Source: Helicobacter sp. CLO-3 (GTDB taxonomy: Bacteria > Campylobacterota > Campylobacteria > Campylobacterales > Helicobacteraceae). Taken from it: a stretch of 47,182 nucleotides of DNA. The position numbers were made by a program, and so were the translations under genes. The stretch is taken from the NCBI RefSeq assembly GCF_001854545.1, contig NZ_MLQN01000019.1:1-47182 (forward strand), written 5' to 3'. This document shows, in pieces, positions 5,036 through 39,426 of this stretch. The notes beneath the pieces were generated by a model that saw only the letters and a program-made list of their open reading frames with translations, searched no databases and was not told the origin of the DNA. Positions within the stretch are counted from its first letter, which is position 1. Each line of letters starts with the position of its first letter.

Positions 5036-5087
5036 GATCTAAAAGCTAGAATCTAGATTCTAGTAAGATTCTGCGCCACAAAGCTAA

Positions 5088-9209: not shown

Positions 9210-10598
9210 CTATTTTTGCTCTTTTTTCTGGCTTATTTTATCTAGCAAGTTTTTGCCTAGCTCACTTTGTGCGAGCCCTTCAAGCATCGCGCCTAGTTGC
9301 GTGCCACCTTTTGCAGAGAAAAATTCACTTACACTTTTTAGCCCTTCATTGACATTGCCATTGCTCGCATTTGCGATGATTTTGATATCTGCTTTATCAA
9401 GCGCTTTTGCTTGCTCGATGCCTATGGCTTGAGAGGCTTCGATTTGGCGGATTGAGATGAGGTAGTTTTGATAGCCTTGATTTTCGCCTATTTCTTGTGC
9501 GAGTGAGATTTGCGCTTCGATTGGCGCCATTTGCATGAGCTTTTCACTTTGGGCTTTTGCAGCACCTTCTAGCTCGATACCTTTTGATTCTTTGCTTTTC
9601 ATTTCTAGCAGGGCTTCTGCCTCGCGCTTTTTAGATTCTAGCAGGGCTTCAGCTTTTAAGATATCTTTTTGCTTATCACCTTCTGCGTTGATGATGGCGG
9701 TTTGCTTGATTTCTTCAGCCTTTACGACATTGACATCTTTTGTGATTTCTGCGCGCTTGATGTCAGCGACTTTGATGACTTCCATTTCTTTTTCTTTGGT
9801 GACTTTTTCTTGCTCTTTGACAAGCTGTGCGGCTTTTTGCGCGGAGATATCGACTTCTCTTTGAGATTCTACGGTTTTTAGTCCCACGACTTGTTTTGCG
9901 ATTTGCTCTTGGATCTGCGTGGCTTGTTCGGCGTTGATTTCAGCGATTTCAGCATTTTTGATATTTTCTGCCACTTCGACGCGACTTTGCATTTCGATAA
10001 GAGATTTTTTCTTTTCCATGATATTGCGGATGACATTAGAATCTTGGCTATCTCTTATATCCATAAGCTCCAAATTTTTAACCGTTTCAACGCCCCAGCT
10101 TGCGAGCTGTTCGCGCACTTCTTTGGTAAAGCTATCGCCAAAAGTGCTTCTTGAGTGCATGATGTCTTCAATCTCATGAGAAGAAAGTATCGTCCTAACA
10201 GAGCCTTGAATAATCGCGCGCAACTGCTCGATAAGCTCATCAAAGCTGCTTACTCTTTGGGCTGCGACATTAGAATCTTTGATACGAAAAAAGGCAGTAA
10301 TATCCACGATAAAAGGCACCCTGCCCTTATCATAGGCTTCATAGCCATTGAGATTTATGTCAAACACAGAAACAGGCAAAACGATTTTTGTCACCCCAAA
10401 AATAGGCACCCAAGAGGGCCACTCATAGTAAGTGTTGCCATTTCCAGTGTCTTTGCCAAAAGAAGTGGTGTTTTTGGCAGATTGGATGATATGCACTTCA
10501 TTTGTCGCCACCACGCGGCGGAAAAGCAGCGCCACCAAAACAATCACCACAAGCAGCGCCAGCAAAGCGCCAACCAGAATCGAAACAAAACTTATCAT
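9210..10598 (-). CDS. Flotillin-like SPFH/band-7 membrane protein
   Basis: N-terminal TM helix (ISFVSILVGALLALLVVIVLVALL), SPFH domain, long EA-rich coiled coil (AEIAEINAEQATQIQEQIAK; EAEALLEMKSKE). The likely ATG start at 10598 (AAGGA 8 nt upstream) is preferred over the TTG at 10604. Confidence 0.8.
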   Translation of the reverse strand: MISFVSILVGALLALLVVIVLVALLFRRVVATNEVHIIQSAKNTTSFGKDTGNGNTYYEWPSWVPIFGVTKIVLPVSVFDINLNGYEAYDKGRVPFIVDITAFFRIKDSNVAAQRVSSFDELIEQLRAIIQGSVRTILSSHEIEDIMHSRSTFGDSFTKEVREQLASWGVETVKNLELMDIRDSQDSNVIRNIMEKKKSLIEMQSRVEVAENIKNAEIAEINAEQATQIQEQIAKQVVGLKTVESQREVDISAQKAAQLVKEQEKVTKEKEMEVIKVADIKRAEITKDVNVVKAEEIKQTAIINAEGDKQKDILKAEALLESKKREAEALLEMKSKESKGIELEGAAKAQSEKLMQMAPIEAQISLAQEIGENQGYQNYLISIRQIEASQAIGIEQAKALDKADIKIIANASNGNVNEGLKSVSEFFSAKGGTQLGAMLEGLAQSELGKNLLDKISQKKEQK

Positions 10599-10699
10599 AG
10601 TCAATCCTTATTAAGCAAAATTTGCCAAAAAGCATAACATAAAATTTATTTTCAAAAAATAAAATGCTACAATTAACACAAAAAGCAGAAAGGAAAACT

Positions 10700-11692
10700 A
10701 TGTCAAATGCTCTTATACAAAGCTTTGATACAGCGCTAAGTGAAAGGAAGCTTTCAAGGGATATCATCGATGAATTTGACAAAGAGGAAAAAAGGCAATC
10801 CGCCGCGCTTTGTGAAAATATCAAGGGCAATGTGGCGCATTTTGAGCAAAGTGATGGATTTATTTTTGAGACGCTAAATGCGATTAAGGCAAATATAGAT
10901 TCTATCAATCCGCATAATTTTAAGCTCTCATTCTTTGATAAAATCTTTGGCAAGCAGACGCAGAAATTTAAAAAATATTTTGAAAAATTTAGCACAAATA
11001 AAAGCTTTTTGAATCAGCTTGTGGCAAAGCTTGATGAAGGCAAAGAGATTTTGACAAGGGATAATATCACGCTTGCGCTTGAGGTGGAGAAAAATGCGAA
11101 TCTAAGCGCACTACTACAAGCAAAGCTAGATATTCTCAAAGAAGCTGATTTGTATGCGGAAAATAAGCTTAAAGAGATCGAAAACGACGCTTTGAAAGGG
11201 GATTTTGAAAAGCAGATTCTCTTTGTGCTAAAGCAAAAAATCATCGATCTAAGCCAGCAAATCGCCGTGCATACGCAAGGTGAGCTTGCGCTAAAAACGC
11301 TTATAAATAATAACAAAGAGCTTATCAACGCTGTCGAGCGCACAAAGGTGGTGACGCTCAATGCGCTAAGCGTGGCGATAATCACCGCGCAAGGCTTGGA
11401 GCAGCAAAAGCGCGTTTTAAACGCGGTGCAGGGGATAAACGAGCAGACAAGTGACCTCATCGCGCATAATGCAAAAGCGCTAAAAGAGCAAGGCAAGGCT
11501 ATCCAAGAGGGCGCAAGTGAAGCGATGCTAGATATGGAGAAGCTAAAGGGCGCGTTTGATGATGTTTTGGATGCTTTGCATTCTGCGCAAGAATACAAGC
11601 AAAACGCGCTGCCAAAAATGCGCGAAAATATCAAAGTTTTTGATTCTTATCTTGCGAAAGCTGCGCATTTAAATAAGGCAAACTTTGGCTGA
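10700..11692 (+). CDS. All-helical coiled-coil protein, possibly TelA-like toxic-anion-resistance family
   Basis: About 330 aa from the ATG at 10700, which has SD AAAGGA at 6-nt spacing (the track start at 10664 has no SD). Predicted entirely helical. The TelA-like call rests only on length and composition and is tentative. Divergently transcribed from the flotillin gene. Confidence 0.35.
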   Translation: MSNALIQSFDTALSERKLSRDIIDEFDKEEKRQSAALCENIKGNVAHFEQSDGFIFETLNAIKANIDSINPHNFKLSFFDKIFGKQTQKFKKYFEKFSTNKSFLNQLVAKLDEGKEILTRDNITLALEVEKNANLSALLQAKLDILKEADLYAENKLKEIENDALKGDFEKQILFVLKQKIIDLSQQIAVHTQGELALKTLINNNKELINAVERTKVVTLNALSVAIITAQGLEQQKRVLNAVQGINEQTSDLIAHNAKALKEQGKAIQEGASEAMLDMEKLKGAFDDVLDALHSAQEYKQNALPKMRENIKVFDSYLAKAAHLNKANFG

Positions 11693-12383
11693 TTTTATCA
11701 CAAGATTTAATAAAAATTTAGAAAAAATAGATTCCCTCGCGCTGTCGTTTTATGAAAAAGATTTGCTTTTTAGCGCGTATTACAATCACCTAAACCATCT
11801 TGAGATAAGCCCGCAGGCAAGGGAGCTTATGAAGGCGCTTGGCATAAGTTTTAGGCATAAAAATATTATTTTTGATTCTGAAATATTAGAATCTAAAACG
11901 CTAGAATCTAACCAAAGCAAAGTGCAAAATAATCAAGCCAAAGCGCAAAAAGAGCCCAAAGAACGCGCGCTAAGCCTTTTTGAATGCGAGAATAAAGCAA
12001 AGGCTTTGCAGACTCAAAGCGAGCATTTTTTGGAGCAAATTAAGCTAAACCTTGAAAAAACGCTTCATCCACAAGAGCTCGCGTTTTTAAAAATTAGCGC
12101 AATTTATCAAAAACTAGAGCAAGAAAAAGCGCGCTTGCAAGAGGCTTTGAGCGAGCTTACTGCAAACTTTTTGCAAGGATTTGAAAACCTTGAAGCACCT
12201 TTGCAGACTGAAATCACACAAAAGGCCAATGCGCTCACGCGCGCGCTAGAAAAGCAAAAAAATCTCTCCGCAAAACTCTGCTTTAAAATCCTAGAAATAA
12301 AAAACGCCCAGACAAAAAATACCACTTCACTTGAAACGCTTATAAACGAGCTAGACGCGTATTTACAAAATATAAAACATTAA
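11685..12383 (+). CDS. Hypothetical coiled-coil protein (TTG start overlapping the upstream stop)
   Basis: 232-aa ORF whose TTG at 11685 overlaps the TGA of the preceding gene (coupling). K/E/Q-rich coiled-coil composition. No recognisable motif. Confidence 0.45.
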   Translation: MADFITRFNKNLEKIDSLALSFYEKDLLFSAYYNHLNHLEISPQARELMKALGISFRHKNIIFDSEILESKTLESNQSKVQNNQAKAQKEPKERALSLFECENKAKALQTQSEHFLEQIKLNLEKTLHPQELAFLKISAIYQKLEQEKARLQEALSELTANFLQGFENLEAPLQTEITQKANALTRALEKQKNLSAKLCFKILEIKNAQTKNTTSLETLINELDAYLQNIKH

Positions 12384-25221: not shown

Positions 25222-26013
25222 ATGAGTCAGAGCAAAATCGCAAAAACAGCCATCATCGCCAAAGGCGCGCAAATCGATGAGGGCGTGGAAATCGGGGATT
25301 TTTGCGTCATCGGCGAAGGGGTAAAAATCGCCAGCGGCACCAAACTCTATAATGGCGTGACGATACTAGGCGACACCACTATCGGCAGGGATAACACCAT
25401 ATTCCCCTACGCCGTGCTAGGCACGATACCACAAGACCTAAAATATGCCGGCGAAAAAGTAGAGCTCATCATCGGCGATCGCAACTCTATCCGCGAGCAT
25501 TGTATGTTTAACCCCGGCACGGAAGGTGGCATCGGCAAAACAATCATCGGTAATGACAATCTTTTCATGGCATTCGTGCATATCGCGCATGATTGCGTCG
25601 TGGGAAATCACTGCATCCTTGCCAACAACGCCACGCTAGGCGGGCATATCGCGTTGGGCGATTATGTAAATATCGGCGGGATGACGCCGGTGCATCAGTT
25701 TGTGCGTATAGGCGATGGCGCGATGATAGCGGGCGCTTCTGCTTTGTCGCAAGACATACCGCCTTATTGCATGGCAGAGGGCAATCGCGCTGTGATTCGC
25801 GGGCTAAACAAACACCGCATGCGAAAGCTATTTGAAAGCACAGAGATAGATGCGATAAGCCACCTTTACAAAGAGCTTTTTGCCGCGACTTCTATGCGCG
25901 CACTCGCTCAAGAAAAGCTAGATTCTGCCCCAGAGCTAGAATCTATCACCAATATCTGTCGCTTTGTCGTAGAATCCGAGCGCGGCATTCCAATACGCAA
26001 GGGGAAAGAATGA
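25222..26013 (+). CDS. lpxA: Acyl-[ACP]--UDP-N-acetylglucosamine O-acyltransferase LpxA
   Basis: Left-handed beta-helix hexapeptide repeats, 263 aa, in the fabZ-lpxA arrangement conserved among Gram-negatives. Confidence 0.9.
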
Positions 26014-27293
26014 AGCGAGTTTGCGATTTTTGCGGACAAGAGCGCGAAGCAAACCAAGTCATACAAGGCGCTGGCGGGCGCAATGGTAGCAATATCTGCA
26101 TATCATGCATAGGCGGGCTATACAAAAGCATCGCGCAATCAGGCATCGATATGGATTCTATGCCTAGCACTTCCAAAGAGCGCTTGGATGGCGATAGATT
26201 CTCCTTGCAAAACATCCCCACACCAAAAGAGATGAAAGCAAGGTTGGATGATTATGTGATAGGGCAGGATAGCGCGAAAAAAGTCTTTTCTGTCGCGGTT
26301 TATAACCACTACAAAAGAATCGCTAGCAATATGGCAAGCGCGAATAATAGCGATGATGTCGAGATTTCCAAATCAAACATTTTGCTGATAGGCCCCACAG
26401 GCAGCGGCAAAACGCTTATGGCGCAGACTTTGGCGCGATTTTTGGATGTGCCTATCGCAATTTCTGATGCGACAAGTCTCACAGAAGCGGGCTATGTCGG
26501 CGAAGATGTGGAAAATATCCTAACGCGCCTCTATCAAGCAGCGGGGAATGATGAGAAAAAGGCGCAAATGGGGATAGTGTTTATCGATGAGATTGACAAA
26601 ATCTCGCGCCTTTCCGAAAACCGCTCTATCACGCGCGATGTGAGCGGGGAGGGCGTGCAGCAGGCATTGCTAAAGATAATCGAGGGAAGCGTGGTAAATA
26701 TCCCACCAAAAGGCGGCAGAAAGCATCCAAACCAAGAATTTATCCAAATAGACACGACCAATATTTTATTTATCTGCGGTGGTGCGTTTGATGGGCTTAG
26801 TGACATCATCAAGCGGCGCATGGGGAGCAATACGCTAGGCTTTGGACAGACGCAAAAAACAAAAGATGAGCGCGAGGATGTGCTAGAGCTTGTGGAGCCT
26901 GATGATTTGGTGAGCTATGGGCTGATACCAGAGCTTATCGGGCGGCTGCATATCATCGCCACGCTAAAGCCTATCACCAAAGAAGCGATGATAGAGATTC
27001 TGACAAAGCCCAAAAACTCGCTAATCAAGCAGTATCAAAAGCTTTTTGAGCTCGATGATGTGGAGCTTGAGTTTGAGGAGGGCGCGGTGGAGAAAATCGC
27101 AGAGCTTGCAATCGCTAGGAAAACAGGGGCGCGCGGGCTGCGAGCGATCATCGAGGAATTTACCACGGATATTATGTTTGATTTGCCCTCCATGCGTAAT
27201 TGCAAGGTGGTGATTACCAAAGATTGCATCGAGCACAAATCCAAACCTCTCGTGCTAAAGCGCAAAAAAATATCTAAAGTTCAAGGAGCGTAG
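26010..27293 (+). CDS. clpX: ATP-dependent Clp protease ATP-binding subunit ClpX
   Basis: N-terminal C4 zinc finger (CDFCG ... CISCIG), Walker A GPTGSGKT, Walker [10 protein letters not shown], sensor and arginine-finger regions. ATGA overlap with lpxA. Confidence 0.95.
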
Positions 27294-27295
27294 AA

Positions 27296-28336
27296 GTGTT
27301 GTTAAACAAACTTATTGGAATGTTTTCGCATGATATTGCGATAGATTTAGGCACAGCAAATACGATAGTGTTGCTAAAAGGGCAGGGCATCATCATCAAT
27401 GAGCCCTCAATCGTGGCGGTGCGCGTGGATCGCTTCGATAGGGATGGCGAGATCCTAGCAGTGGGGCATGAAGCCAAAGAAATGGTAGGCAAAACCCCAA
27501 GCGGAATCCAAGCCATACGCCCGATGAAAGATGGCGTCATCGCGGATTTTGATGTGACAGAGAAGATGATACGCTACTTCATCGAAAAAGCGCATAACCG
27601 CAAATCGCTCATCCGCCCGCGCATCATGGTGTGCGTGCCTTATGGGCTTACTGGCGTGGAGCGCAAAGCGGTGAAAGAATCTGCTATGAGTGCGGGTGCT
27701 AGAGAAGTCTATCTCATAGAAGAGCCCATGGCAGCAGCGATAGGCGCAGGGCTTCCTATCAAAGAGCCACAAGGAAGCCTCATCGTAGATATTGGCGGTG
27801 GCACGACAGAGATCGGCGTCATTTCTCTTGGCGGACTCGTGATATCCAAATCCATCCGCGTAGCAGGCGATAAGCTAGACATGGCTATCGTAAATCATGT
27901 GCGCAAACATTACAACCTCCTCATCGGCGAGCGCGCGGGCGAAGAGATAAAAATCCAAATCGGCGCAGCAGCGCCGCTAGAGCAGCCGCTATCTATGCAG
28001 ATAAAAGGGCGCGATCAAGTAAGCGGACTGCTAAACACCATAGAGCTTACGAGCGAGGATATACGCGAGGCTATCAAAGATCAGTTGCGCGAGATAAGCG
28101 GCGCGGTAAAAAGCGTCATCGAAGCGGTGCCGGCGGATCTTGCGGGCGATTTGGTGGAAAATGGACTCACGCTTACTGGCGGGGGCGCGCTTATACGCGG
28201 GCTTGATAGGTATCTCTCTGATGCGATTAAGCTACCGGTATTTATCGGCGATGAGCCGCTGCTAGCAGTCGCCAAAGGCACGGGCAAAGCTATCGAAGAG
28301 CTAGACATCCTGCATAATACCAGTCGCTATGAATAG
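27296..28336 (+). CDS. mreB: Rod-shape-determining actin homologue MreB (GTG start)
   Basis: MLLNKLIGMFSHDIAIDLGTANTIV matches the MreB N-terminus as I recall it for H. pylori (MIFSKLIGLFSHDIAIDLGTANTIV). SD AAGGAG 7 nt before the GTG. 346 aa. Confidence 0.95.
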   Translation: MLLNKLIGMFSHDIAIDLGTANTIVLLKGQGIIINEPSIVAVRVDRFDRDGEILAVGHEAKEMVGKTPSGIQAIRPMKDGVIADFDVTEKMIRYFIEKAHNRKSLIRPRIMVCVPYGLTGVERKAVKESAMSAGAREVYLIEEPMAAAIGAGLPIKEPQGSLIVDIGGGTTEIGVISLGGLVISKSIRVAGDKLDMAIVNHVRKHYNLLIGERAGEEIKIQIGAAAPLEQPLSMQIKGRDQVSGLLNTIELTSEDIREAIKDQLREISGAVKSVIEAVPADLAGDLVENGLTLTGGGALIRGLDRYLSDAIKLPVFIGDEPLLAVAKGTGKAIEELDILHNTSRYE

Positions 28337-28350
28337 CCGGCGGGACGCCC

Positions 28351-29157
28351 ATGCGCTACCAATCTTTGACAATCGCCGTTGTTTTGCTAGCGATTGTTTT
28401 TATCGCTGTAGATTCTAGCAAGTTTTTGCAAAGACATATCGCAGCAGTGGGCGATGGGATAAAGATTTTTGTCCTAGATTCTAAAGATTCCATATCGCTT
28501 TCTTATCGCAAATACATCTCTCAAGCACAATCCATAGAAGAATACGAACAAAAGCTAAAAGACTATGAAAGACTAGAGCTAGAGCTAAAACACGCGCAAA
28601 ATGAGCTTGATAATCTCGTGGTGTTTGACACACAGCAGGCGTTTTATAATGATGCTAGATTCTTGCCCTCCAGAGCGTATTCTTATGTGAATATGGGCGA
28701 TTATAGTCGCGTGTGGCTAAACTTTGATGTGAAAGATTATCCAGAGGATAGAATCTTTGGCGTGGTGCAGGATAATAAGGTGCTAGGCATTGCTATCATG
28801 GAGGATGGGCGGCTGATGGGGCTGCTAAATGGCGACAAAAAAAGCAGCTATAGCGTGTATGTGGGTGATGAAAAAGTGCCCGCTATCGTGCATGCTAGCG
28901 CGCTTACGAGCGATAATATCACCGCGGATTTCATCCCCTCATGGAAAAAGATAAACATAGGCGATCAGGTTTTCACCAGCGGGCTAGATGGGATATTTAT
29001 CGAGGGCATAGCGGTGGGCGAGGTGGTGAGCGTGAATTATGATTTTGGCTATATTTCTGCGGAAGTGAAGCCATACGCGCAGCAAACCGGGCTTGGATAT
29101 ATGTGGCTAATAGACACCAATGTCCCGGTGCAAACTAGCGCAAAAGAGGCGTTTTGA
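28351..29157 (+). CDS. mreC: Rod-shape-determining protein MreC
   Basis: N-terminal TM helix, coiled-coil segment (KLKDYERLELELKHAQNELDNL) and a C-terminal beta-rich domain. Immediately follows mreB. Confidence 0.7.
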   Translation: MRYQSLTIAVVLLAIVFIAVDSSKFLQRHIAAVGDGIKIFVLDSKDSISLSYRKYISQAQSIEEYEQKLKDYERLELELKHAQNELDNLVVFDTQQAFYNDARFLPSRAYSYVNMGDYSRVWLNFDVKDYPEDRIFGVVQDNKVLGIAIMEDGRLMGLLNGDKKSSYSVYVGDEKVPAIVHASALTSDNITADFIPSWKKINIGDQVFTSGLDGIFIEGIAVGEVVSVNYDFGYISAEVKPYAQQTGLGYMWLIDTNVPVQTSAKEAF

Positions 29158-32019: not shown

Positions 32020-32132
32020 GATTCCAAACTATGCAAAACCATGCAAAGCACCCAGAATCTAGATTCTGGTAATTTGACAGCTTAAAGCTAGCGCAAAATC
32101 CAGCCAAACCAAAGAAGCAAAAAGGAGCAAAC

Positions 32133-33200
32133 ATGATAACCAAATATCCAAAAATCCGCCCCAGCACAAAAGGCACAAAAAACGCAAAAAGTGCAAAAGG
32201 CGTAAAAAGCGTAAAATGTTTCACAAAGCACATATTAATGTCGCAAATATCGCGCATATTAACATCTTGCGCGCTTAGCATCGCGATATGCTTCCTCGCC
32301 ACAAGCGCACTAGAATCCACAGAATTAGGCCAGCGCCCACAAGCCACAAACACCACAAACGCTGCAAACATCATCACAAGCACCACAAACACCACAAGTG
32401 CAAATAGCACCATACAACCCATAAGCGCAAGCATCACCCAGCAAGCTCCCAAAACACCACAGCGATACACCACCGATCTAGAGGAAGTGGGCTTACACAT
32501 GCAGTTTGTATGGCTGAAGTCAAACCTGCCTTATGCAGAGCATGACAATGACACTTTTGCGCACTTTCCTGCATGGCATTTCCCTATAATGCAGCCTTAT
32601 AACACCAGCTTTTTGACGCGCCAGCTTCTTCCCAAGCCTGAATATGTGGTCAATATGCAGTGGGCGGATGGCAGCTATGATGATAGCATGCCTTTTTGGC
32701 TTTGGCTGTATTGGGGGATGTCGGATAGTATGATATTGGATATGGATGATAAAAGCCTGTGTTTTTCTGCCAAAGGTGTCGGCTGTCTGCTGCCCTATGC
32801 GCCAAAATTTAAAAAAGACGCCGCGCTTTACGCCCTGCCAAAAGTGGATTCTGATACGCTGCATAAGCTATCAAGCGACGATATCGTGTTTCCTGTGGCG
32901 CTTAGCAGTGATGGCAAGTTTTATCAAGTGATAGTTTTCCCGCAGATGCAGGGCATCACCAAACAAAAAACCGCAGAGGATGCGTATGAGTATATGGATT
33001 CTCTTGTGGAGCAGGGGAGGGTGCCGCTCAATGGATTTGTCAAAAAATCTGTGATAAAAAAGCTAAATAAAGGCAACCCTCTGACAAAAATCGATCCAAA
33101 CTACTCCGATGCGCCGGTATTTTTCACGCTGCCTTTTGATATAGATTTCAAATATATGGATGAGGAGAAGCGAGCGCATTTCAAAGCGGTGGATGAGTAG
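32133..33200 (+). CDS. Hypothetical membrane-anchored or secreted protein with a T/N-rich sequon-dense segment
   Basis: Strong SD AAAGGAG 6 nt before the ATG. Lys-rich N-region, then a hydrophobic segment (ILTSCALSIAICFLATSA), then ATNTTNAANIITSTTNTTSANSTIQ (three NX(S/T) sequons in 25 aa), then a ~250-aa W/Y/D-rich globular region. No recognisable family. Confidence 0.6.
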   Translation: MITKYPKIRPSTKGTKNAKSAKGVKSVKCFTKHILMSQISRILTSCALSIAICFLATSALESTELGQRPQATNTTNAANIITSTTNTTSANSTIQPISASITQQAPKTPQRYTTDLEEVGLHMQFVWLKSNLPYAEHDNDTFAHFPAWHFPIMQPYNTSFLTRQLLPKPEYVVNMQWADGSYDDSMPFWLWLYWGMSDSMILDMDDKSLCFSAKGVGCLLPYAPKFKKDAALYALPKVDSDTLHKLSSDDIVFPVALSSDGKFYQVIVFPQMQGITKQKTAEDAYEYMDSLVEQGRVPLNGFVKKSVIKKLNKGNPLTKIDPNYSDAPVFFTLPFDIDFKYMDEEKRAHFKAVDE

Positions 33201-33308
33201 GCGCGGATGAATGGGCGGCAAGTGCAGGGCAAAAGCATGAAATGCTAAGGTAGGGCGCGTTTATCGCGCTTTGGCTTTATCTAGTGCATTTAGAAAAAGG
33301 TAGCCAAA

Positions 33309-34436
33309 ATGACAAAAACAGCACAAACAGCACAAACAGCACAAACAGCACAAATACCAGCAGTGGTAAAATATGTAAAACACCAGCTAGGCGCATATTT
33401 TGTGCGCTTTATGCGTTTTATGCGCTTTGCTTGGCTAAGTGCCTTGCTGTTTGCAAGTGCGGCTAGCGCTTCAGATTTTGTCTATGGGCGCGCGATTATC
33501 GCTAGCGATAAGGTATTTTTCCTCGCAGATCGCGGCGCAAGGTCTGGCAACACGCCACCGCCAAACTACATCATGCCAAATCAAGTATTTGCATTTAGCC
33601 ATTTTGACAGAAGTGGCAGAAACGACAAATCTTCGCTTTGCGGGGACTCTAGCCAAAAAATCGCAGATGATAGCGGTATAGTGCGCTGCATCACCCCAAA
33701 AAGCACCAATATAGTCATAAACCCCGCTTTGCATGTTAACATCATGCGACTAAAAATAAGCGCGCAAGAATCATCACTAGATAAATTGTCACCGGATGAA
33801 TCGTCACCAGCAGAATCTAGTCTAGGCAAATCTAGCCCCGCAAAATCCAGCGCGCGCCAATACAAAGAAATAAGCAAGCGCTATGGCTTTGGGCGCAATG
33901 AGCGGAATGGTATCGTGCAGTGGGGCTGGACGACTTCTGATATACCTGATGATGTGCTGGGATTTCAAGAGGTGGTGCTGGCGCATAGTGATAGCGCGCT
34001 GAAGCTTTATAAAGAGCCTTTGCTAGAATCTGAAATCATCCTGCAAGGCGTGCATGCGAGCTCTAGCGCGATACTGCCGCGCACAGCAGAATCTAAAAGA
34101 GCGCGCGATGATATAGCGAGTGGCAAAAAGATAGTGCCAGATGCTACGACTGCGAATATGGCGCTGCTGGCAATCCCAGAGGTGTTGTTTGAAAGCTATT
34201 TGGGCGATCGTATATTTTTGGTAGGGTATGTGGAGGGTGAAAAAAATAGCGCTTCGCCAAACAAAGCAGAATCCAAATCAAGGCCTCGAGCAGAATCCAA
34301 GCAAACAGAATCCCAAGCGGAATCTAAAAATAAGGCAGAATCCAAAAAAGGCAGATTCTACCAAGCGATAGTGGTGCGCGATGAGTCGGTGTATTTTTGG
34401 GATATTTTGCAGAAAATGAATTACAATCCACGATAA
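33309..34436 (+). CDS. Hypothetical secreted protein with an N-terminal (TAQ)4 repeat and Ser/Glu/Lys-rich low-complexity runs
   Basis: SD AAAAAGG. Hydrophobic signal-like segment FAWLSALLFASAASASD after an extended N-region. A 9-nt repeat x4 at 33321-33356. AESK-type C-terminal repeats. Confidence 0.55.
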   Translation: MTKTAQTAQTAQTAQIPAVVKYVKHQLGAYFVRFMRFMRFAWLSALLFASAASASDFVYGRAIIASDKVFFLADRGARSGNTPPPNYIMPNQVFAFSHFDRSGRNDKSSLCGDSSQKIADDSGIVRCITPKSTNIVINPALHVNIMRLKISAQESSLDKLSPDESSPAESSLGKSSPAKSSARQYKEISKRYGFGRNERNGIVQWGWTTSDIPDDVLGFQEVVLAHSDSALKLYKEPLLESEIILQGVHASSSAILPRTAESKRARDDIASGKKIVPDATTANMALLAIPEVLFESYLGDRIFLVGYVEGEKNSASPNKAESKSRPRAESKQTESQAESKNKAESKKGRFYQAIVVRDESVYFWDILQKMNYNPR

Positions 34437-35980
34437 ATAAGCAAAATAGCTCCAAAAACTTACCAAAAGTAGAAGGCGCTACGCTTGCTTTATCAGATAC
34501 GCCAGCAAATCTTGCAAAAGCTAACCTCACGCTTTTTGACAATCAATACTCTGGAATAAAACAGCGCGCATACATAAGCCATGCGCTAGAGAATCTAGAT
34601 AGCATAAAAGTAGAGTTCAACTTAGATGATGAGAGGATCTATCTAGCAGATTCTAGCGTTTTGCCGCTGCTTCCCATAAGTCAAGAGATAGATTATTATC
34701 TAAGCGCGGAGGATCGTGCCAACCTTGCGACTATCGCGCGCAGCAGAGGCATGCTAAAGATCCCAGCGACGCTAAATATCACGCTAGATTATAGCTTGGG
34801 CGAGCATGTGGCGCTGGAGCCTGAGGTAAAGCTAGTCTCTCTAAGTAGCAAAGGGTCAAAATCTACTAACGCAGCAGCGCAAATCAGGGGATTGGCACCA
34901 AATAATGCAGCACCAAATAATGCAGGATTTATACCACAAAGCACCGATACCCAAACGCACAAAAAACTATACGAGCGCTCATGTATGAGCGAGAATCTAG
35001 TGCGTAAAGGGTTTTTGGAGATTTATTCTATTGATAAAGAAGAGATTGATAAAAACGACATCGCCAAAGATTCTGCAGATTCTACAGGCTCTATAGATTC
35101 TGCGCAAGGCGATTCTGACAAAGCCAAAAACATGCTCTACACACTCTATATCAGCAAAATAGACGCAGCAAATAGCATACTGCTAACAAGGCCTGCAGAA
35201 TCCGCAGCGCAAAACACCCTCAAAAACAAGGAGTTCGCATCCAAAGATTTTATCCAAATTTGCTATGGCTTTGCGAGCGATAAAGATGGGATTAAGTGCA
35301 TGCCTTTTGGCTTCGTGCGCGCGGATGATATCATCTCTTGCAGGGACTATGATAGCAAAAATGCGCCAGATTATGCGCTGGCAAAAGCGGTGCTAAAAGC
35401 CATTAGCGAGCTAGAATCTAAGCCGATAGATTCTACTAGCTTTGCGCTTTATAAAAGCGGCGCAGAAAATAGCGGGCAAGCGCAAACGCAGACACTAATA
35501 GGGCAGATTACCAAAGTAAAAAGCCTAAAAGAAGGCATAGAGCTAGCAAAAAGCTATAAAATGGATGATATATCACTGCTAGAGCAGATACCAAAAGACA
35601 GCACCACGCCAAATGCTAGCAAGGCAAAAGCGCGCCAAACGCCACAAGCGCCTTATGGCAGCGATAGAAGAGTGCGCTACAATCGCGGGAGAGATTATGT
35701 AGAGCCAGAAGCGGAGGCGCATTTCATTTTCCTAAACGAACCAAAAGCGCTAGAAAAGCTAGCCAGCAAATCACAGCTCAAATCCCAGCCACTAGGCGAC
35801 ACGACTTTGCTTTATACAAAGCGTCCTTTTGGTGGCGAAAAAGACATCCGCGCCCTGCTAAAAAAGCCCAAGCAATCAGACTTCACCCAAGAGATTTTGG
35901 CGATATATCATAGAAATATCTATATTTTTAGCGAGGATAGTGTGATATATTTGGATGGGCGCAAGCTGCTTGATAGATGA
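34397..35980 (+). CDS. Hypothetical 527-aa protein (TTG start, 40-nt overlap with the upstream gene)
   Basis: Long ORF with protein-like composition. No signal peptide or known motif seen. The start is uncertain: TTG at 34397, and the first in-frame ATG is far downstream. Could be translationally coupled or a frameshifted continuation. Confidence 0.45.
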   Translation: MGYFAENELQSTINKQNSSKNLPKVEGATLALSDTPANLAKANLTLFDNQYSGIKQRAYISHALENLDSIKVEFNLDDERIYLADSSVLPLLPISQEIDYYLSAEDRANLATIARSRGMLKIPATLNITLDYSLGEHVALEPEVKLVSLSSKGSKSTNAAAQIRGLAPNNAAPNNAGFIPQSTDTQTHKKLYERSCMSENLVRKGFLEIYSIDKEEIDKNDIAKDSADSTGSIDSAQGDSDKAKNMLYTLYISKIDAANSILLTRPAESAAQNTLKNKEFASKDFIQICYGFASDKDGIKCMPFGFVRADDIISCRDYDSKNAPDYALAKAVLKAISELESKPIDSTSFALYKSGAENSGQAQTQTLIGQITKVKSLKEGIELAKSYKMDDISLLEQIPKDSTTPNASKAKARQTPQAPYGSDRRVRYNRGRDYVEPEAEAHFIFLNEPKALEKLASKSQLKSQPLGDTTLLYTKRPFGGEKDIRALLKKPKQSDFTQEILAIYHRNIYIFSEDSVIYLDGRKLLDR

Positions 35981-38358: not shown

Positions 38359-39426
38359 ATGGAAAAGGCAAATAATCGCGACAATTTCGGCAATCCCGAT
38401 AACTCTAATAACCCCAATAATCGCAGAAACTTTATCAAAGCCGGCGTGGGTGCTTGCGCGGTGCTGGGATTTGGCGGGGCATTGTCGAGCTTGGGCGCAA
38501 AAGGCGCGGATTCTACTAAAACAGATTCTGGCAAAGCGGATTCTGGCAAATCTGGCAAAATAGATTCTAGCAAACTAGATTCTAGTAAAGCGGATTCCAC
38601 CAGCACTTCAGAATCTAGCGCAAAGCAAGAATCCATCACGCTAAATAATGGCGTGCAAATGCCACTCATCGGACTTGGGACTTACGCACTCACCGGCGCG
38701 CAAGGTGTCAGCGTAGTCAAAGAAGCGGCAAAGCTTGGCTATCGCCTCTTTGACACCGCGCAAATGTATAACAACGAGCGCGAGGTGGCGCAGGGTTTGC
38801 GTGAAAGTGGCGTGGCGCGTGAAAAGCTTTTTATCATGACAAAACTTTCAAGCGATATGAGTTATGAAGAGACGAAGCGCCATATCGATAGGACTTTGGC
38901 GGAGATGAAGCTGGAGTATTTTGACTTGCTTTTGTTGCATCGCGATTTTTCATCAAGAGATGCGATGTATAGGGCGATGGAGGAATTTTACGCGCAAGGC
39001 AAGCTAAAAGCGCTTGGCATCTCAAATTTTCGAGAAAAGGCGTATTTGGACTTTATCAAAACCTGCAAGATAATGCCTGCGGTCAATCAAATGGAGACGC
39101 ATATTTTCTTGCAGCACAGCGCGTATCAAAAGTTTATGCGTGAAAATGGTGGGTGCGCGCTGCAGTCGTGGAGTCCTTTTGATTCTGGGCGCAAGGGGTT
39201 TTTCACAAATGAAATTCTGATGAAAATCGCCAAAAAGCATAATAAAAGTGTCGCGCAAGTGGCTTTGCGCTGGCTTACACAGCGCGGTGTGGTGGCGATA
39301 CCAAAAACCTCTAAAATAGAGCGGCTGAAAGAGAATCTAAATATCTTTGATTTTGTGCTTGATGAATCCGACCTCGCACAAATTGCCAAACTAGACACCG
39401 GCAAAAGTTCTGTCGGCTGGTGGTGA
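38359..39426 (+). CDS. Tat-exported aldo/keto reductase
   Basis: Twin-arginine signal (NRRNFIKAGVGACAVLGFGGALSSLGA). AKR motifs (GLGTYAL, LFDTAQMYNNE, LLLHRDF, ISNF). A Ser/Asp/Lys-rich low-complexity insertion (DSGKADSGKSGKIDSSKLDSSKADSTSTSESS) sits just after the signal peptide. Confidence 0.85.
   Translation: MEKANNRDNFGNPDNSNNPNNRRNFIKAGVGACAVLGFGGALSSLGAKGADSTKTDSGKADSGKSGKIDSSKLDSSKADSTSTSESSAKQESITLNNGVQMPLIGLGTYALTGAQGVSVVKEAAKLGYRLFDTAQMYNNEREVAQGLRESGVAREKLFIMTKLSSDMSYEETKRHIDRTLAEMKLEYFDLLLLHRDFSSRDAMYRAMEEFYAQGKLKALGISNFREKAYLDFIKTCKIMPAVNQMETHIFLQHSAYQKFMRENGGCALQSWSPFDSGRKGFFTNEILMKIAKKHNKSVAQVALRWLTQRGVVAIPKTSKIERLKENLNIFDFVLDESDLAQIAKLDTGKSSVGWW

Follow-up and report, generated by a model that had tools for sequence, protein, structure and literature searches.

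Downstream of a glycosyltransferase (GT) gene in Helicobacter sp. CLO-3 lie three consecutive open reading frames (ORFs) of 355, 375 and 527 codons, and the question that this locus raises is what these ORFs encode and whether their products are modified by the neighbouring enzyme. The locus is on contig NZ_MLQN01000019.1, of which positions 1 to 47,182 are called the window here (the whole stretch of 47,182 nucleotides that was analysed). The 942-residue GT (WP_066455761), the 355-residue protein (WP_066455764) and the 527-residue protein (WP_066455770) are each annotated "hypothetical protein". An earlier note, made from the letters alone, had described three hypothetical proteins and had likened them to adhesin-like substrates of GT41 N-glycosyltransferases, on the HMW1/HMW1C model, or to a species-specific surface-protein set. 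All three ORFs are present (Table 1), but they represent two genes, the 375- and 527-codon ORFs being one frameshifted gene. We give about an even chance to the reading that these genes form a lineage-restricted, exported envelope pair, in which a small protein of the SH3b type, probably peptidoglycan-binding, is accompanied by a large partner that is disrupted in CLO-3.

The 375- and 527-codon ORFs are one frameshifted gene

In the alignment with the metagenomic relative L007, whose GT is 85% identical to that of the window, the only DNA difference at the junction of the two ORFs was a 1-bp deletion that leaves GGG in place of GGGG at 34398-34400. One added G gives an uninterrupted ORF of 890 residues. 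The orthologues of L007 (885 residues), L012 (819 residues) and H. canis (632 residues) are continuous through the junction, which lies between ESVYFW and GY, and a BLASTP alignment of the L007 protein with the H. canis protein crosses it (E 5e-51). The 375-codon ORF comprises residues 1-362 of the intact protein followed by 13 out-of-frame codons, and the 527-codon ORF holds the rest. The TTG from which the earlier note had the latter begin does lie within the preceding ORF, with an overlap of 40 nt, but it is an artefact of the frameshift. Because the 527-residue piece carries neither a signal peptide nor a hydrophobic leader, the exported product in CLO-3 would be the 375-residue N-terminal fragment. 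In the comparison with L007, the ratio of nonsynonymous to synonymous substitution rates (dN/dS) comes to 0.39 for the first half and 0.37 for the second, and because both halves keep these values the disruption looks recent, a pairwise ratio being blind to recent inactivation. Annotations should mark the 375/527 pair as a single, disrupted gene.

The frameshifted sequence was also identified in assembly GCA_001677375.1 and in the Logan assembly of ERR6337362, both of which carry the same stretch. The identical split in three assemblies could mean that it is functional, either with two separately translated proteins or with ribosomal frameshifting or transcriptional slippage at TTTTTGGG, and the like dN/dS of the two halves (0.37-0.39) and an independent split ~35 codons upstream in L020 are consistent with this. 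However, the three assemblies may come from one strain, and pairwise dN/dS cannot reveal a recent inactivation. Moreover, three lineages encode one uninterrupted protein, the 527-residue part has no export signal, and T TTT TGG G does not fit the X XXY YYZ pattern of slippery heptamers. We consider a functional split highly improbable, and programmed frameshifting was rejected as the leading explanation on account of the missing heptamer and the unbroken relatives.

The partner family is characterized by a signal peptide, a conserved mature N-terminus (SDFxYGRA) and the motifs LPISQEIDYYL and YGGDRxVSYDR, and no relative of it was found in Pfam, the PDB or PHROGs. The (TAQ)4 repeat that had been noticed at its N-terminus is confirmed as a perfect 9-bp tandem repeat of 4.3 copies, and it is degenerate in L007. 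Partial paralogy between the partner family and the family of the 355-residue protein was tried and discarded, as hhalign gave only a non-significant 20-column match (D-x-v-F...FYQ) to the SH3b core of the small protein, at 17% probability. In L020, the ~890-residue orthologue (9466-12133) is split into 409 and 475 residues, with the frame change near G-runs; this may be a second independent disruption or an assembly error.

The 355-residue protein carries a conserved, probably SH3b-like domain

A HMMER scan of 1.84 billion representatives gave 11 matches to the family of the 355-residue protein, about 10 of which are real. These relatives are 250-324 residues long or fragments, and they carry a hydrophobic, signal-peptide-like leader wherever the N-terminus is present. 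A word-indexed homology search with the 355-residue protein returned its own cluster only. Invariant in the family, in the numbering of the 355-residue protein, are D203, K207, L209, C210, G217, C218, P221, K227, D250, F253, Y264, Q265, I267, N300 and F302. In the AlphaFold2 (AF2) model, the predicted local distance difference test score (pLDDT) is 80-98 at residues ~120-340 and below 50 at 1-28 and 60-116, and the predicted structure of the conserved domain is an SH3-type beta-barrel. The domain is probably SH3b-like, with a second barrel N-terminal to the SH3b core. Foldseek ranked NlpC2 and an endolysin at the top, not significantly, and the best fold matches of the model are periplasmic or cell-wall-binding modules. 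The Pfam profile SH3_3 (PF08239) matched two homologue fragments on their FYQV core (P0118, 17.7 bits, E 0.004; P0117, 16.2 bits, E 0.012), over the stretch equivalent to residues ~232-266 of the window protein; the search of the window protein itself with this profile gave no match.

The closest known modules are the SH3b (SH3_3/SH3_5) cell-wall-binding domains, as in the phiSM101 endolysin Psm (4KRT), NlpC/P60 proteins (3PVQ, 6SQX, 3M1U, 6BIM), AtlE R2ab (7KWI) and lysostaphin (4LXC). Unlike the peptidoglycan hydrolases that carry such domains, the 355-residue protein has no catalytic domain, and its similarity to them lies below all family thresholds and is non-significant in Foldseek. To our knowledge, the W-rich motif PFWxWxxW and the CX7C pair of the family are not known from SH3b families. 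In Helicobacter pylori, the cell-shape protein Csd5 binds peptidoglycan through its SH3 domain. The 355-residue protein would be like it in being a Helicobacter envelope protein that has a membrane segment at the N-terminus and a domain of the SH3 type in the periplasm, and the genes studied here stand beside mreB-mreC; Csd5, however, is much smaller and is not encoded beside mreBC.

The start codon of the 355-residue protein is credible, with a strong Shine-Dalgarno sequence (AAGGAG) 6 nt before the ATG. Residues 39-60 are its sole strongly hydrophobic segment (Kyte-Doolittle 2.1), with a +10 basic region ahead of them and a helix at 28-58 in the AF2 model. This leader may be either a Sec signal peptide, with a possible cut between ATSA and LE, or an uncleaved signal anchor; the orthologues carry ordinary short signal peptides in its place. 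When a basic N-region, a hydrophobic core and small residues at -3/-1 were checked manually by rule, candidate Sec signals were identified in the 355-residue protein (TSA-LE), in the 375-residue piece (ASA-SD) and in orthologues (LQA-EW, AFG-SD, AHA-DF). A lipoprotein reading was rejected, as the Cys of LTSC in the leader has no hydrophobic stretch before it and is absent from the orthologues.

Between the leader and the conserved domain, the CLO-3 protein has a disordered linker that is present only in the window and L007, and so is specific to the CLO-3 lineage. In H. canis, L009/L014, L012 and the remoter homologues P0114-P0120, the signal peptide runs directly, or via a short spacer, into the conserved domain. 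The linker DNA is a degenerate 9-bp/27-bp tandem repeat at 32344-32430 (Tandem Repeats Finder (TRF) arrays 32344-32397 and 32379-32430), and against L007 its dN/dS is 0.58 as compared with 0.25 for the folded domain. We propose that the CLO-3 protein is exported via Sec as a long basic N-region, a hydrophobic segment that may remain as an inner-membrane anchor, a disordered T/N/S spacer and then the conserved domain of ~230 residues.

The pair is restricted to a few Helicobacter lineages and frequently follows mreC and the GT gene

Wherever they were seen, the two genes lie side by side. This module is confined to a few gut Helicobacter species and occurs in about seven lineages, between which identity is 28-42%. 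In five of them the pair stands behind mreC and the GT gene: CLO-3/L007, the H. canis group (L003, L009, L014, L015), L012, L020/L016 and L021. In H. canis, the GT gene, a gene of the 253-residue type for the small protein and the partner gene are 37 bp apart or overlapping, and the GT gene and the pair are likely co-transcribed. In the two remaining lineages, the pair follows nhaA (L018, GCA_003364195.1) or cytochrome c and Impact_N genes (L019), and no GT or mreC gene was found within reach of the pair at these loci. The L018 proteins are of 256 and 546 residues, the latter matching the 632-residue H. canis protein at E 3e-14. The GT gene also occurs without the pair: in H. cholecystus, Helicobacter sp. 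13S00477-4 and a metagenome-assembled genome from blackcap gut (L005, L011 and L013), a GT4-like gene and/or a methyltransferase gene comes after it. Linkage of the pair to the GT gene is frequent and obligatory in neither direction. The earlier note had named wide occurrence of these genes without the GT gene as telling against its substrate idea, and this was found in part, with the pair away from mreC and the GT gene in two lineages and the GT gene without the pair in three. Degenerate-pattern scans of genomes and metagenomes added only H. canis-like loci, and a search with a concatenated alignment of the two families returned only near-identical H. canis 632-residue proteins. At L021 (GCA_965313165.1, 6640-8320), two tandem SH3b-like paralogues of 276 and 267 residues separate the GT gene from the large partner gene.

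Because the position behind mreB-mreC-GT is conserved synteny in most carriers, the site suggests a cell-envelope role for the pair, and purifying selection on both genes (dN/dS 0.25-0.39) is in line with the envelope-pair reading. By analogy with the SH3b domains of endolysins, autolysins and NlpC/P60 proteins, the domain of the small protein would, in the periplasm, bind peptidoglycan or some other glycan of the envelope. The product of the second gene, ~890 residues when intact, would be its constant exported downstream partner, reduced in CLO-3 to the exported 375-residue fragment while the remaining 527 codons lack an export signal. Several points weigh against this reading. The best Foldseek match of the 355-residue model in the PDB has an E of only 0.1, the model was built on an 11-sequence alignment, and the SH3_3 matches stay under the Pfam cut-off (17.7 bits versus 27). 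SH3-like barrels are small and common and also bind proteins or nucleic acids, and the predicted fold does not fix the identity of the ligand. The large partner showed no detectable family or fold in sequence and profile searches. In addition, the adjacency to the GT gene in 5 of 7 lineages may signal a functional link that we have possibly under-weighted.

The narrow distribution and rapid divergence of the pair (28-42% identity, dN/dS 0.25-0.58) could also be those of surface-exposed, fast-evolving proteins of the adhesin or antigen type, in which the low-complexity repeats would be a means of antigenic or length variation. Such proteins would fit with the tandem repeats that keep the frame, namely (TAQ)4 and the 9/27-bp repeat of the linker, and with the independent disruptions of the second gene in CLO-3 and L020. 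However, these lineage-specific repeats are short, and a typical contingency locus would need a longer tract than the G3/G4 run. There is no lipobox Cys after the leader, no autotransporter, two-partner secretion (TPS) or Hop/HP_OMP domain was found, and the best fold matches are to periplasmic or cell-wall-binding modules. We therefore regard a surface location as unlikely. Of the proposed species-specific surface-protein set, export and restriction to few lineages (about 10 relatives in 1.84 billion) hold, but the surface location is not favoured. With the periplasmic envelope pair as the preferred reading, a narrow, unannotated two-gene family gains a gene model, an SH3b-like fold for one member, a taxonomic range and a testable cell-wall role.

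The upstream GT resembles OGT and SPY

The earlier note had assigned the upstream gene to GT41, and this finds support at the level of the fold. The AF2 model of the 942-residue protein (pLDDT 71; predicted template modelling score 0.70) consists of a helical N-domain, a GT-B domain at ~505-800 and C-terminal helices. In the Foldseek search of the PDB, the best 29 matches were all OGT or SPY enzymes of bacterial, human or plant origin (E 4.5e-8 to 9e-6, 675-797 aligned columns), GT4 enzymes started at rank 30, and HMW1C/NGT (N-glycosyltransferase) structures were absent from the 50 best matches. The model indicates that the GT41 label is correct at fold level and that the subtype is an O-transferase (OGT/SPY), not HMW1C. 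The protein itself had no Pfam or NCBIfam match, so it is not recognized by the PF13844 (Glyco_transf_41) profile; one of its 16 homologues (P0026) matches that profile at E 2e-5, flagged 'faint', and a PDB profile search with the GT family was empty. The family-invariant K707 lies in GRLTKIDS, which by eye looks like NQLYKIDP, the K842 motif of human OGT; an hhalign comparison of the GT family with a C-terminal fragment of human OGT was not significant. The architecture of a helical-repeat N-domain and a GT-B domain is shared with OGT/SPINDLY enzymes of GT41, namely Thermobaculum terrenum OGT (5DJS), Xanthomonas XcOGT (2VSN), human OGT and Arabidopsis SPY (8DTH), but the 942-residue protein is only 11-13% identical to them, lacks a PF13844 match and has lineage-specific disordered inserts.

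Two such Ser-rich inserts, at residues 48-89 and 214-304 of the N-domain, have a pLDDT below 35. The CLO-3 enzyme is ~170 residues longer than its H. canis orthologue, and the disordered Ser/Glu/Asp-rich inserts account for the excess; their length varies even among CLO-3 and its closest relatives, whose enzymes are of 942, 992 and 1033 residues. The GT gene stands after mreC in every examined locus that carries it, and we know of no counterpart to this fixed site in enterohepatic Helicobacter among OGT/SPINDLY-type enzymes. Enterohepatic Helicobacter, then, have an OGT/SPY-like GT41 enzyme encoded at a fixed site after mreBC, and its target could merit finding. No relevant literature was found on CLO-3 or on H. 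canis glycosyltransferases. Because a GT4-like gene, in one case with a methyltransferase gene, follows the GT gene in the lineages without the pair, the GT41-like enzyme may help to build a glycan rather than work alone. The genes after the mreC-linked GT in these lineages lie at 11950-13107 in L005, 10078-12221 in L011 and 10037-11188 in L013, and the methyltransferase is of the S-adenosylmethionine (SAM) type.

The evidence does not support the pair as glycosylation substrates

The note had pointed to a trio of sequons beside a hydrophobic segment of the 355-residue protein as a mark of glycosylation. The trio is there, at N73, N86 and N91 in ATNTTNAANIITSTTNTTSANSTIQ (residues 71-95), and so is the segment at 39-60. 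The whole protein has 6 sequons compared with 2.1 expected from whole-protein shuffles (P=0.007), an excess that arises from a single low-complexity linker patch inside the tandem repeat. When the 36-residue linker alone was shuffled, at least three sequons appeared in 23% of trials (P=0.23), and the cluster is not above chance given the local composition. Orthologues have 0-1 sequons, never at an aligned position; the 375-residue piece has none and the 527-residue piece has 4, with 4.1 expected. Derived from a repeat and unconserved, the cluster fails as a glycosylation mark, and because the GT resembles O-glycosyltransferases with tetratricopeptide repeats, the NX(S/T) sequons do not appear to be the relevant signal.

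The HMW1/HMW1C (NGT) system of Haemophilus influenzae shares with this locus a cytoplasmic GT41-class enzyme encoded beside exported proteins. In contrast to that system, the enzyme here is OGT/SPY-like, the neighbours are not TPS adhesins, an HMW1B-type transporter is absent nearby, the sequons are few, unconserved and explained by composition, and linkage of the enzyme gene to its supposed substrate genes is incomplete. No TPS, haemagglutinin or POTRA/ShlB domain was found in these proteins or their neighbours. HMW1C-style N-glycosylation in Helicobacter would have been a second example, which the evidence does not bear out.

In a different form of the substrate idea, one or both of the downstream proteins would receive glycans on Ser/Thr from the cytoplasmic GT41-like enzyme before Sec export, with the linker and the Ser-rich inserts as acceptors. 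The GT41 fold of the upstream protein, the position of the pair directly downstream of the GT gene in 5 of 7 lineages, some only ~35% identical, and the tight spacing of the three genes in H. canis (37 bp apart or overlapping) are in line with this, and the acceptor-like, disordered S/T-rich segments are real. However, the linker and the Ser-rich inserts are limited to the CLO-3 lineage, while the GT is conserved where the orthologues lack them. ES/DS-rich inserts of the same kind are found in the GT itself and in an aldo-keto reductase and stem from a genome-wide word (see below), there is no conserved sequon (0-1 in orthologues), and the top 50 structural matches include none of the HMW1C type. 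At some loci the pair stands apart from the GT gene, and at others the GT gene lacks the pair and lies beside GT4-like and methyltransferase genes that suggest glycan assembly. We judge this modification to be quite unlikely; there is no evidence in the sequence for modification of the pair by the GT, and the glycosylation-substrate idea is not supported.

A more speculative arrangement, which we likewise think has little chance of being correct, is that the SH3b protein, its partner and the OGT-like GT form an undescribed envelope system of enterohepatic Helicobacter, for example a peptidoglycan-associated scaffold for cell shape or for sheath or flagellar insertion, whose components may be O-glycosylated before export. 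If this were true, a bacterial OGT-type enzyme would act on Sec substrates.

The Ser-rich runs derive from a genome-wide word

The Ser-rich runs to which the earlier note drew attention are present in the proteins, but they are products of the genome-wide word AGAWTCT and are not special to them. The window holds 159 copies in 47 kb, with 7.6 expected from composition, and in coding sequence there are 109 copies as compared with 20.2 +/- 4.1 in synonymous-codon shuffles. Its density between genes is 2.5x that within them, there is no bias towards either strand (60/53) and nearly every 1-kb bin contains a copy; the 8-mer forms of the word are AGAATCTA/TAGATTCT. Five perfect AGAATCTAGATTCT palindromes occur in the window (at 5048, 8224, 8294, 22575 and 32054), and GASTC is depleted (23 versus 80). 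In genes, AGAWTCT is read nearly always as Glu-Ser or Asp-Ser, which gives ESS, DSS and AESK runs, and in-frame AGAATC/GATTCT copies underlie the Ser-rich strings of the 942-residue (27 copies), 375-residue (9) and 527-residue (10) proteins. Because the word is over-represented across the window, the runs are a property of the genome and not a mark of these proteins.

The enrichment of AGAWTCT is 7-27x in all module-bearing loci tested (L003, L007, L009, L012, L014, L018, L020, L021) and only 2-3x in three module-free loci of the H. cholecystus type, a correlation that is most likely phylogenetic. Judged from its distribution, the word behaves like a sequence of the DNA-uptake type or an otherwise selected genomic word; no literature on AGAATCT/AGAWTCT was found. 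Because strong over-representation accompanies the module at every locus that bears it and is missing from the three loci without it, a link between the periplasmic pair and the word was considered, for instance in sequence-selective DNA uptake, and this idea is still more remote than the envelope system with the GT. The aldo-keto reductase at 38359-39426 has a long N-terminal extension, KTDSGKADSGKSGKIDSSKLDSSKADSTSTSESS, of AGAWTCT-derived Asp-Ser/Glu-Ser repeats, which sits behind a candidate Tat/Sec-like leader, RRNFIKAGVGACAVLG.

Gene order and features of the locus

On the + strand of the contig, the genes run fabZ, lpxA, clpX (26010-27293), mreB (27296-28336), mreC (28351-29157) and the GT gene, which is followed by the three ORFs; a chemoreceptor gene and a gene for a PAS protein come next, on the opposite strand. 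Searches of the window proteins and their orthologues against Pfam, NCBIfam and PHROGs gave no match above threshold, in agreement with the earlier statement that none has a recognisable family, and PDB sequence and profile searches with the GT, 355-residue and partner families were empty or gave chance-level matches. The features of the locus are collected in Table 1.

Table 1. Genes, protein segments and DNA features between the GT gene and the end of the partner gene
Feature	Position	Strand	Remarks
GT41-like (OGT/SPY-type) glycosyltransferase, 942 residues	29191..32019	+	Predicted cytoplasmic; from AF2 and Foldseek; outside the two-gene module
Perfect palindrome CCAGAATCTAGATTCTGG	32052..32070	.	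Between GT gene and 355-residue gene; inverted AGAWTCT pair, one of the five AGAATCTAGATTCT palindromes; hairpin possible; no T-run after it
355-codon ORF	32133-33200	+	ATG start
Leader, residues 1-60 of the 355-residue protein	32133..32312	+	Basic N-region (10 K/R, no D/E) and hydrophobic ISRILTSCALSIAICFLATSAL
Linker, residues 61-117	32313..32483	+	Disordered, T/N/S/Q-rich; NTT/NTT/NST sequons; pLDDT <50; TRF repeats
Conserved domain, residues 118-355	32484..33200	+	Beta-rich, probably SH3b-like fold; Cys pair C210/C218
SH3_3-like core of the 355-residue protein	~residues 232-266		LYALPKVDSDTLHKLSSDDIVFPVALSSDGKFYQV
Terminator-like hairpin	33251..33273	+	Between 355-residue gene and partner gene; consensus scan: 9-bp stem, 5 GC pairs, T-rich tail; pattern match only
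Partner gene, frameshifted	33309..35980	+	Single gene for a predicted exported protein of ~890 residues (632/885-residue family); signal peptide ending in WLSALLFASAASA, then SDFVYGRA
375-codon ORF	33309-34436	+	ATG start
Perfect 9-bp tandem repeat AAACAGCAC x4.3	33316..33354	+	Encodes (TAQ)4 in the N-region ahead of the signal peptide
Frameshift site	34393..34400	+	TTTTTGGG in the window, TTTTTGGGG in L007
527-codon ORF	34397-35980	+	TTG start; 40-nt overlap with the 375-codon ORF

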